Source: a phage
Strand: one strand, 5' to 3'
DNA length: 64,000 nucleotides
Sequence record: PQ400055.1
Position numbers and translations under genes: made by a program. Shown in pieces: positions 41,200-43,245 of the stretch. How positions within the stretch are numbered: the first letter of the stretch is position 1; every line of letters starts with the position of its first letter. The notes below the pieces were generated by a model. It did no database searches and had not been told where the DNA came from. It saw only the letters and a program-made list of their open reading frames with translations.

Positions 41200-42947
41200 G
41201 CGTGATTGAAGGGATTAACGCAATGGCGACGGATGAACACCCGCTACATTTAGCGCATCCGTCTACACTAGAAACTAAAATTGATTCAAACGGCATTGAA
41301 TGGATTTTATCAAAGCATGATGATAAATGGTATCCTAAAAAGTTTTCTGACTATCTGAAATTAAACAGACCGCAGAAAATAAGGATGCAAAGCACTGATC
41401 CAACAAATTATAAGTTCTTTAAAGATAGTGACAATATTCGCACGCGGTATATGCGATTAAAGAACTTGCGAAGGGCGAATATTAAAACTCAGTATACCCC
41501 TGAAATGATTGCAGAGTGGAAACGATGCCGTAAAGATATTGTGTATTTTGCCGAAACCTATTGCGCAATTACACACATCGACTACGGTACAATCAAAGTA
41601 CAATTGCGTGATTATCAGAAAGATATGCTTAAGATCATGCATGAAAACCGCATGAGTGCACATAAACTCAGTCGTCAGCTAGGGAAAACTACCGCTGTAG
41701 CAATATTCCTTGCTCACTACGTTTGTTTTAATAAAGACAAAGCGGTAGGTATACTGGCACACAAAGGATCAATGGCAGTTGAGGTTCTAGAACGTACTAA
41801 ACAAGCAATTGAACTATTACCAGACTTCTTACAGCCAGGTATTGTTGAATGGAACAAGAAATCAATTGTTCTTGAAAACGGTTCAAGTATTGGTGCTTAT
41901 GCGTCGTCTCCTGATGCCGTGCGTGGTAACTCGTTCTCGTTTATCTACATTGACGAATGCGTTAGCGGCTTGACCAAAGTTACACTACGTGATAAACTAA
42001 CAGGTGAGATTAAAGAATACACTATGTTAGAGGTTAAGATGATGGCTATTCAGCAAAAGTTGAATAAAATTAAAGAGTTATTACTGCCGCACGCAAAAAA
42101 TCCAAACTTAACTCGCGGTTGGGTTCCTGGCGTAACTATGGATATGTTGGAAGAATACAAAGAGTTTTTCGACACACATTTTCATAAAACCGAATCCATG
42201 AGAGAGTTTATCGCATGTGTAACAAATGATATTCTGGATCGTCCCGTTTGCTCTACGAAAGGTTGTGGTTGTCGTGTGGAATTAAGCAAGAATGGTCCAT
42301 ACTATAAGGATAAATGCCATAACTACTGCACAGAAAAATTGCCTGGGCGCTTAGGGAAAATATCATCAAAAATGGTTATCTTCCGTCGTTTTGAGTGTCC
42401 AGAATGTGGGATGTATGCTGTTAAAAATGAAGGTTATCTTTGCCGTAAATGTGGTTACGCCAAACAAGGCGAGGCAATGAAACGTCTATACGTCGAAAAC
42501 GGCGATGAAATGCGCAAAAAGTGCAACGGTAAGAAAACACCCGAACAAAGGGCTAAACAGTCCGAGCAAGTTAAACAGCGTATTCTGAATGGTGAATTTA
42601 CTCCTAAGACGACTAACCGTCTTAATCACAATCGCATTAAGTATGATGGTCATAACTTTCGTAGCTCATGGGAACTATCTTTCTATAAAGATATGAAAGC
42701 TAAAGGCGTTAATATTGAATATGAAACGCTTCGTGTTACATACAAATTTAAAGGAAAGAATCACGTTTATATTACGGACTTCGTAGATCACGATAATAAG
42801 ATCGTTTATGAAGTTAAGCCTAAGCGACTTGTTGAAGACCCAAAAACAATGGCGAAAGAACACGCCGCTATAGAATGGTGTAAAGAAAACGGATATACTT
42901 TCGAATATATTCACGAGGATTATATTAATGAACTTTTGGAATCTTGA
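41196..42947 (+). CDS. 17: terminase large subunit N-terminal part (to Walker-B IYIDE) fused to intein N-fragment and Zn-ribbon/nuclease-like domain
   Basis: First 254 aa match T4 gp17 ATPase region as recalled; then [12 protein letters not shown]... (intein block-A-like), Cys clusters, and RSSWE...DF...EVKP domain; stop at 42945-42947. Confidence 0.85.
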
Positions 42948-43245
42948 CGGATTCGAAGTTCTCACCGAAAACGGTTTTAAAGATTTTGATGGCATAAAAG
43001 AAACATTTGGTATGATCTGGAAACTAACATTTAGTGATGGATCATACCTTGAATGCTCAGAAAGCCATAAATTAAAATCAAGTGACGGCTTTTTTATTGA
43101 AGCCGATGATATAGAGGCTGGATTCGTTACGTCTTCCGGCCTTACTGTCATTAGTAAAGATTATGTTGGTGAAGACTTTTTATACGATCTAACTAATGTT
43201 GCCGATGGCAACCATTACACTACAAACAATGTAGAATCTCACAAT
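41958..43245 (+). mobile_element. intein-like element in gp17, apparently naturally split, carrying an endonuclease-like module
   Basis: Begins with Cys after IYIDE; ends ...[22 protein letters not shown] followed by extein CAFIQNW; length 1288 nt is not a multiple of 3; stop and restart with GAGGA SD plus ATG at 42928. Confidence 0.75.

Follow-up and report, generated by a model that had tools for sequence, protein, structure and literature searches.

Gene 17 of the phage behind sequence record PQ400055.1, which encodes the large terminase subunit (TerL), is split by a 1,288-nucleotide insert. This insert is probably a mobile fractured-gene element: a class-1 intein that is split after about 26 residues, together with a homing endonuclease of the PD-(D/E)xK type, with trans-splicing rebuilding TerL and the endonuclease driving homing. 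We analyzed a window of 64,000 nucleotides of this record, and all coordinates refer to that stretch, with position 1 as its first letter. The source phage is a Krischvirus, or RB49-like coliphage, and a relative of T4. Over the region that concerns us (41196-44307), identity to Escherichia phage kaaroe is 99.8%.

The insert (41958-43245) divides gene 17 into two open reading frames (ORFs). ORF1 (41196-42947, 583 amino acids) follows TerL as far as ...SFSFIYIDE, reaches a cysteine codon at 41958, continues for about 300 more amino acids, and ends in ...INELLES. ORF2 runs from the ATG at 42928 to 44307 (459 amino acids) in the +1 frame relative to ORF1. Its protein has 106 residues (MNFWNLDG...NNVESHN) before it enters the extein at CAFIQNW. 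The order is N-extein with the intein's N-terminal portion (IntN), endonuclease, and C-terminal part of the intein (IntC) with C-extein, all on one strand:

41196 to 41957, plus strand: N-extein, residues 1-254 of TerL (gp17); it contains Walker A (SRQLGKT) and Walker B with the catalytic glutamate (IYIDE).
41958 to 42035, plus strand: IntN, 26 residues, with the nucleophile Cys1 and a beta-hairpin; assigned by homology to the type-A IntN, the contiguous mini-intein, and many IntN sequences from IMG/VR.
42036 to 42947, plus strand: endonuclease module, 303 amino acids and a stop codon, fused in frame to IntN; assigned from Pfam, PHROG, and AlphaFold2 (AF2).
42928 to 43245, plus strand: IntC, 106 residues, with HINT blocks B (SESH, including the invariant His47), F (Asp87), and G (SHN, whose last residue is Asn106).
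43246 to 44307, plus strand: C-extein, TerL residues 255-607 and the stop codon, beginning with the Cys+1 nucleophile (CAFIQNW).

If the insert is deleted in silico, the remaining 1,824 nucleotides encode a 607-amino-acid protein that is 100% identical to gp17 of RB49, with 11 synonymous differences between the genes. Both exteins are recognized by Pfam: the N-extein matches Terminase_6N (E = 1.4e-25), and the C-extein matches the C-terminal half of Terminase_6N as well as Terminase_6C. The ligated product aligns to gp17 of T4 without a gap across IYIDE256|C257, the N-extein accounting for the alignment up to E256. As judged by this alignment, the insertion point is between the catalytic glutamate and the next cysteine of the TerL ATPase (E256|C257 in T4 numbering). 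These results agree with an earlier note on this DNA, which had proposed that the match to gp17 halts after IYIDE and restarts at CAFIQNW, that the insert comprises 1,288 nucleotides, that ORF1 stops at 42945-42947 and ORF2 starts at 42928 in the +1 frame, and that removing the insert would give a TerL of about 607 amino acids; the alignment of the ligated exteins to T4 gp17 that it had asked for was collinear. The note had also placed a GAGGA Shine-Dalgarno (SD) sequence 9 nucleotides before ORF2. The GAGGA is there (42915-42919), but the spacer measures 8 nucleotides.

All of the class-1 splicing residues are present (Cys1, His47 of block B, Asp87 of block F, His105-Asn106, and Cys+1), and they are invariant across the relatives; for IntC, this was read from alignments A1 and A3. 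The insert therefore does open with a cysteine and end like an intein before the extein cysteine, as had been claimed. When we compared IntC to the PDB with phmmer, it matched CatC (6DSL_B) over 103 residues (E = 8.6e-13). For the AF2 model of IntC (predicted local distance difference test [pLDDT] of 86), the best Foldseek match was also 6DSL_B (template modeling [TM] scores of 0.82 and 0.77, root mean square deviation of 2.5 A), and 38 intein structures came next with E of 1e-3 or less, including gp41-1, DnaB, DnaE, and VidaL. This bears out the proposal that the 106-residue C-part is most of a HINT fold. IntN alone had no phmmer match in the PDB, as the query is too short. In the AF2 model, IntN has strands at residues 7-11 and 18-22, which form a hairpin, and a long helix follows. 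The HINT homology on ORF1 stops after 26 residues, in keeping with the note's estimate of how much of the HINT domain precedes the module; IntC begins at its own methionine, and the break point aligns with the linker of contiguous homologues.

By sequence, modeled fold, split position, and catalytic residues, this is a split intein of the AceL-TerL/GOS-TerL/Cat family. Trans-splicing has been shown experimentally for AceL-TerL, GOS-TerL, and Cat (review PMC11766414). Like the intein of PQ400055.1, they lie in the large terminase of a myovirus and have a very short IntN, an IntC of about 104-115 amino acids with blocks B, F, and G, and the nucleophile pair Cys1/Cys+1. (The lengths of IntN and IntC are 25 and 104 amino acids in AceL-TerL, and 37 and 115 in GOS-TerL.) There are two differences. 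First, their IntN ends at a stop codon, whereas the IntN of PQ400055.1 runs in frame into a 303-amino-acid endonuclease. Second, they are metagenomic or engineered, whereas this intein is in a culturable phage of E. coli that grows at 37 C.

The module fused to IntN consists of a linker helix, a helical N-terminal domain, a zinc finger, a zinc ribbon, a helical linker, and a PD-(D/E)xK core. It matches TnsA-like_N (3e-8) and Phage_endo_I (9e-7) in Pfam and the 'endonuclease' family 15427 in PHROG (1e-48). The AF2 model has a pLDDT of 77 over its whole length, rising to more than 90 in the core. Three parts of the module can be located:

42249 to 42329, plus strand: Cys cluster 1, C-x5-C-x-C ... 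C-x3-C, a putative zinc finger seen in the sequence and modeled by AF2 with low confidence.
42396 to 42452, plus strand: Cys cluster 2, CPEC-x12-CRKC, a zinc ribbon that is kept in short and long endonucleases and weakly matches Pfam Zn_ribbon_3.
42636 to 42944, plus strand: PD-(D/E)xK core, with Glu 42672-42674 (FRSSWE), Asp 42777-42779 (ITDF), and Glu 42810-42812 plus Lys 42816-42818 (YEVKP).

Cys cluster 1 is absent from the short type-A endonucleases; P0013, another Krischvirus variant of the fusion, and the metagenome phage contig L013 have CxxC...CxxxC at this place. By phmmer, the core is related to T7 endonuclease I (1M0D/1FZR/2PFJ, E of about 1e-3), which pairs FRSGLE with FRSSWE, YTPDF with YITDF, and VETK with YEVK. 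FRSSWE/ITDF/YEVK thereby line up with the catalytic region of the T7 enzyme, E20/D55/E65-K67. Foldseek matched the core to TnsA (1T0F and 1F1Z, probability 1.00), the catalytic domain of I-Bth0305I (3R3P), and Vsr. The motif is the canonical E/D/ExK, and the likeness to Vsr and I-Bth0305I is at the level of the fold only. The catalytic residues are invariant in the endonuclease alignment (A2). Judged by motif and model, the module is a PD-(D/E)xK nuclease of the TnsA/endonuclease I/gp4 branch with its catalytic residues intact, so the note's description of a nuclease-like module of about 300 amino acids with Cys4 clusters was apt. It shares its fold and the E...D...ExK motif with T7 endonuclease I, TnsA of Tn7, and gp4 of T4. 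Unlike these enzymes, it lies inside an intein and has N-terminal zinc-binding and helical modules, which are typical of modular homing endonucleases.

The homologue of gp4 (the head completion nuclease) in this window, at about 20280-20696 on the minus strand, contains YRSSWE...DF...EVKP. The note had seen the same RSSWE...DF...EVKP motif in both proteins, and the similarity between the gp4 homologue and the endonuclease core is detectable by tblastn (E = 5e-4) and through PHROG 218, 'head closure' (E = 7e-10). The common motif implies that the homing endonuclease and a core phage nuclease share ancestry. As a separate observation, P0013 (581 amino acids, 81% identity overall) has its zinc-finger region swapped for one of the L013 type, so the endonuclease is itself mosaic.

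The broken frame is replicated. Six Krischvirus phages in GenBank (kaaroe, JK32, phiS, vB_Eco_SAP, vB_Eco_TB34, and G2494) have identical relative ORF positions and an invariant overlap; they come from Denmark, Ireland, China, and Germany, with no recorded origin for two of the six. In a seventh record, GoldenSnicker, the element spans the ends of the record. None of the copies has a single uninterrupted ORF through HINT-N, endonuclease, and HINT-C: the +1 change and the stop at 42945-42947 are in all of them. Nor does any Krischvirus copy have a stop after IntN, and the frame stays open for 303 codons into the endonuclease. The insert of phiS differs at 57 of 1,288 positions, yet both of its ORFs are intact. 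Compared to phiS, pN/pS (the ratio of nonsynonymous to synonymous polymorphism) is 0.06 for both IntN and the endonuclease, and 0.02 for IntC, which is near the extein values. These ratios indicate that IntN, the endonuclease, and IntC are all under strong purifying selection. More distantly, the fused two-ORF layout, likewise with an open frame, is found in L013 (57% identity of the insert protein), in Shewanella phage Thanatos-2 (39%), and in the lineages P0017 and P0018. Overall, the fusion turns up repeatedly, in at least five lineages of terL. The cluster of IntC-extein proteins has 31 member sequences.

The sequence suggests how the two ORFs are translated. Two sites matter:

42915 to 42947, plus strand: coupling junction, with the SD GAGGA (42915-42919) inside the His-Glu-Asp codons of the endonuclease, the ATG of ORF2 (42928), and the stop of ORF1 (42945-42947).
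42030 to 42044, plus strand: GAGG (42030-42033) and in-frame ATG ATG (42039-42044), the probable ancestral start of the endonuclease gene, which is now translated in continuation of IntN.

ORF1 and ORF2 overlap by 20 nucleotides, and this junction is invariant in all Krischvirus copies. An equivalent overlap of SD, ATG, and stop is found in L013, Thanatos-2, phiR1-RT, and L103. Every lineage keeps the SD and ATG of IntC, and they are located in the final codons of the endonuclease, which suggests translational coupling. As for the second site, Met1 of the free-standing long endonuclease P0014 (from locus L103) aligns with the ATG at 42039, and the GAGG is 5 nucleotides upstream. An endonuclease without IntN may also be made from the in-frame GAGG/ATG (42030-42041) in the PQ400055.1 phage, as a possible second product. 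The corresponding internal methionine is absent from L013 and Thanatos-2; in those two, the fusion must therefore be the translated product. As for transcription, the insert contains no T4 late promoter (TATAAATA), the nearest being at 44303, for gene 18; sigma-70-like matches in the insert are at the chance level, and no terminators were found there. The insert is thus most likely transcribed together with genes 16 and 17. A paper on a Campylobacter phage read a similar locus as 'intein plus intron,' so we also looked for an intron: an Rfam scan of 41700-43500 found no group I or group II intron.

We propose the following mechanism. ORF1 would yield the N-extein, IntN, and endonuclease as one chain of 583 amino acids, and coupling through the overlap would give the two chains in similar amounts. 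The 26-residue hairpin of IntN would then dock into IntC and complete the HINT fold. From membership in the family, class-1 chemistry is expected: an acyl shift at Cys1, transfer to Cys+1, and cyclization of Asn106. The products would be a 607-amino-acid TerL identical to gp17 of RB49, with the predicted junction peptide ..FIYIDECAFIQNW.., a 329-amino-acid IntN-endonuclease, and the 106-amino-acid IntC. In a mixed infection, the endonuclease would cut an intein-less terL near the insertion site, and recombinational repair would copy the element in.

The population data bear on the last of these steps. Of 60 near-identical terL genes from Krischvirus, about 7 contain the insert, and a similar pair is known from Shewanella phages: Thanatos-1 is without the insert and Thanatos-2 is with it (PMC7530303). 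In JK32, the insert is just 0.5% diverged, while the C-extein is 10-14% diverged from position 43638 on. Polymorphisms in the flanks are shuffled between intein-containing and intein-less alleles: the right flank of PQ400055.1 is that of W115 and KFS-EC, and the right flank of SAP is that of RB49. Among the 7 intein-containing and 6 intein-less alleles that we compared, one flank site is perfectly linked to the insert, and it is the only one:

41954, plus strand: synonymous GAC/GAT site, 4 nucleotides upstream of the insert, with C in 7 of 7 intein-containing and T in 6 of 6 intein-less alleles.

This site may be a marker of co-conversion, or it may belong to the recognition sequence of the endonuclease. 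The pattern across the population fits homing with short co-conversion tracts, without proving homing.

Several points weigh against the mobile split intein that we propose. Splicing and nuclease activity are predictions, from sequence and by analogy, for the PQ400055.1 phage and for all cultured relatives. Pfam and NCBIfam scans of both ORFs detected no HINT or intein family. The note had suggested running HINT profiles on both ORFs, and this gave no match; the similarity was found for IntC by phmmer and by AF2 with Foldseek instead. As Pfam and NCBIfam are blind to these HINT halves, such a check would be falsely negative. In the characterized members of the family, IntN ends free, whereas here there are large domains on both sides of it, and the threading requirement that has been described for the assembly of atypical split inteins (PMC11766414) could hinder assembly. 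The in-frame GAGG/ATG means that the free endonuclease, and not the fusion, could be the active species. The cleavage target of the endonuclease is putative, and the population evidence for homing is also compatible with ordinary recombination between co-infecting phages.

One alternative accepts splicing of the intein but holds that homing is no longer driven by the endonuclease, which either has been co-opted (for example, for exclusion of competitors or for DNA processing linked to packaging) or is hitch-hiking. The relationship of its core to gp4 of T4, a head completion nuclease, is in favor of co-option, as is its expression with, and initial tethering to, the packaging enzyme; also, just one flank site is linked to the insert. 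However, the presence/absence polymorphism and an insert that is far more conserved than the flanks in JK32 fit a classical homing element, and so does the presence, in relatives, of free-standing genes of this endonuclease family between the two halves of the intein. A hitch-hiker should not be under purifying selection. We consider the loss of homing to be unlikely.

Another alternative is that the TerL fragments are never ligated, and that the intein halves hold them together non-covalently as a two-chain packaging enzyme. T4-like phages do tolerate split essential genes without inteins, such as nrdA/mobE of Aeh1 and the split gp43 (cited in Dassa 2009, PMC2677866), and splicing is here a prediction. 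But all of the splicing residues are invariant under strong purifying selection, and the relatives AceL-TerL, GOS-TerL, and Cat splice in vitro. Furthermore, with the break right after the catalytic glutamate, an unspliced enzyme would have to accommodate about 435 foreign residues in the active site of the ATPase. Finally, a near-identical contiguous mini-intein exists, and it must cis-splice to give a working TerL. An enzyme of two unligated chains is thus quite improbable.

A programmed +1 frameshift at 42874-42945 would turn the two ORFs into a contiguous, cis-splicing intein with a nested endonuclease, which is the common form. The frame of ORF2 is indeed open from 42874, which leaves a window of 72 nucleotides for the shift. 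However, the three fused lineages have no slippery motif in common, and the sequences of their overlaps differ; the predicted RNA structure at 42880-42980 is not significant (z = -1.65). Also, the SD and ATG are conserved exactly at residue 1 of IntC in all lineages, including the three-ORF relatives, where a shift would be useless. We view a frameshift as very unlikely. As for a sequencing or assembly indel in what is really a continuous in-frame intein, an option that the note had left standing, nothing favors it other than the prior that single-base indels are common, and we rule it out as extremely improbable, given the same 1,288-nucleotide length and overlap in six independently sequenced phages and the same layout in contigs from metagenomes (57% and about 40% identity).

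The split intein with a homing endonuclease thus remains our preferred explanation, and its relatives put the fusion in context. A tblastn search with IntC found the same intein in 82 phage records and at least 185 loci in IMG/VR. At the common IYxDE|C site, it occurs in four states: contiguous, three-ORF, distant IntN, and fused two-ORF. Contiguous mini-inteins without an endonuclease are found, for example, in Vibrio vB_VmeM-32 (locus L014), SRB7757, P0246, and P0241, and the homologue of L017 is contiguous at this site. In the three-ORF state, phiR1-RT, TG1, HY03, SG1, and PspYZU05 have a 199-amino-acid version of this nuclease, L103 has a 299-amino-acid version, and CP21 has a T5orf172-type gene instead. 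In the third state, found in CPX-like phages of Campylobacter, there is no IntN within 3 kb upstream. In most relatives (phiR1-RT, HY03, and 80 IMG/VR loci), a stop codon follows IntN, usually with a free-standing endonuclease gene next. In the 80 IMG/VR loci that we examined, the IntN ORF ends within 0-32 codons and is fused in none, so the fusion is rare. Two candidate fusions with a long tail after the match (L024 and L028) were rejected, as each has a related intein at a different site in terL.

An especially telling case is P0241, whose contiguous mini-intein of 140 amino acids is identical to IntN of Thanatos-2 at 23 of 24 positions and to its IntC at 95 of 99, with a short linker where Thanatos-2 has the endonuclease. 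Such halves can therefore work as one cis-splicing domain. These alignments indicate that the endonuclease is an insertion or a deletion at the loop between IntN and IntC.

The three-ORF relatives (Yersinia phiR1-RT g166-g168, Escherichia HY03, Pseudomonas PspYZU05, and the metagenome locus L103) share the insertion site with PQ400055.1, as well as 58-64% identity in IntC, 47-49% in the nuclease core, and the SD/ATG overlap of IntC. They differ in that IntN stops after about 41 amino acids (36 in L103), and a separate, overlapping ORF encodes the endonuclease, which has 199 amino acids (without the N-terminal domain and the first zinc finger) or 299 (L103). 'Fractured genes' were described by Dassa 2009 (PMC2677866), including a gp17-like terminase locus with an unusual break point and a C part of 122 amino acids. 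There, a stop codon and a noncoding spacer of 27-51 nucleotides come between IntN and the endonuclease, which has a gene to itself, in some cases with dedicated control elements, and belongs to the GIY-YIG or Vsr-like (EDxHD) type. As in PQ400055.1, the split halves flank an endonuclease on the same strand within an essential phage gene. Unlike them, the insert of PQ400055.1 has no stop, no spacer, no promoter-like element above chance, and a canonical PD-(D/E)xK enzyme. The note's statement that short-N split inteins in TerL and endonucleases between intein halves were already known is correct, given Dassa 2009, AceL-TerL, and GOS-TerL. In canonical bifunctional inteins (with LAGLIDADG or HNH endonucleases, as in Escherichia phage AV108), the endonuclease is also translated within the host precursor and excised by protein splicing. 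However, those are single ORFs with the endonuclease between blocks B and F, whereas in PQ400055.1 the endonuclease follows the first beta-hairpin, with the chain break at the boundary between the endonuclease and IntC.

The intein type is thus already known, and the IntN-endonuclease fusion appears to be new: we found no paper describing it, in a coverage of the literature that is incomplete, so that an earlier description is possible. In the Thanatos paper (PMC7530303), the insert is described as 'a 1.2 kbp insertion … leading to a frameshift,' and one recent paper states that inteins had not been reported from coliphages. More broadly, such loci are mis-annotated as 'frameshift,' 'hypothetical protein,' or pseudogene.

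We also considered whether the in-frame fusion is a selected architecture: natural split inteins would then include a class with bifunctional N-terminal fragments, the endonuclease could not be synthesized unless the host gene is translated, and trans-splicing would be the only way to release, and perhaps activate, it. We offer this only tentatively and think it somewhat doubtful. If it is the case, then the fusion would be the long-sought intermediate on the way from free-standing homing endonuclease genes to intein domains, or on the reverse path, and an atypical IntN would assemble with IntC despite large domains at both of its ends. The fusion bears on how endonucleases enter inteins and on how well a short IntN tolerates bulky cargo at its C terminus. 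Atypically split TerL inteins are valued tools for protein engineering that were known only from metagenomes, and in the literature that we searched, we found no study of their natural biology. Here, the same family is in plaque-forming phages of E. coli, beside near-identical intein-less sisters (RB49, Phi1, and others). As three-ORF and contiguous mini-intein cousins also exist, this is a tractable system for natural trans-splicing, for fractured-gene homing, and for the cycle of endonuclease gain and loss.

Other terL genes in this survey have more than one intein. In L105 (ENA ERZ27248689 k141_67156, 220-4244), terL is in three genes, with two atypically split inteins. In both, IntN is in frame with an endonuclease. 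That at the Walker-A site (after QLGK|C) is of the T5orf172 type, and that at the Walker-B site (after YVDE|C) is of the PD-(D/E)xK type. The middle gene (P0017) encodes the first IntC, the middle extein, the second IntN, and an endonuclease. In vB_VmeM-32 (KU160494, 1102-3216), the Walker-B site has a contiguous mini-intein that is homologous to the intein of PQ400055.1. The annotated TerL of this phage, like P0241, begins inside an IntC-like segment whose end (…SHN|TTVTAILLAHY) is at the Walker-A site, which suggests a second, unannotated, atypically split intein upstream.

In Campylobacter phages CPX, CP81, and their relatives (L015 and L034-L041), IntC with the C-extein has a gene to itself, immediately following the one for the neck protein, and no IntN or N-extein was found within 3 kb upstream. 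Judging by this gene order, the halves of CPX/CP81-type terL appear to be encoded far apart, in a truly trans arrangement. In Campylobacter phage CP21 (L016, 3400-4140), IntC and the start of the C-extein are unannotated and lie between CP21_126 (the T5orf172 endonuclease) and CP21_127 ('terminase'); the N-terminal part of its terL also contains a contiguous intein at the Walker-A site.

Two further observations concern Krischvirus. First, terL of AV108 (OR352938, 495-3311) contains a contiguous LAGLIDADG intein of 331 amino acids at the Walker-A site, GK|T. It starts with alanine, and its W (DHIW), C (VKCIQV), and T (PTHN) resemble those of a class-3 'WCT' intein. A 222-amino-acid variant of this intein with the same ends occurs in P0012 (803 amino acids), along with an IntN-endonuclease fusion, in one N-terminal gene. 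Second, in gene 18 (tail sheath), at about 45000-45300 of the window, PQ400055.1 has dense differences or indels relative to the otherwise near-identical RB49, kaaroe, phiS, and JK32, and this stretch resembles a variable segment of the sheath gene.

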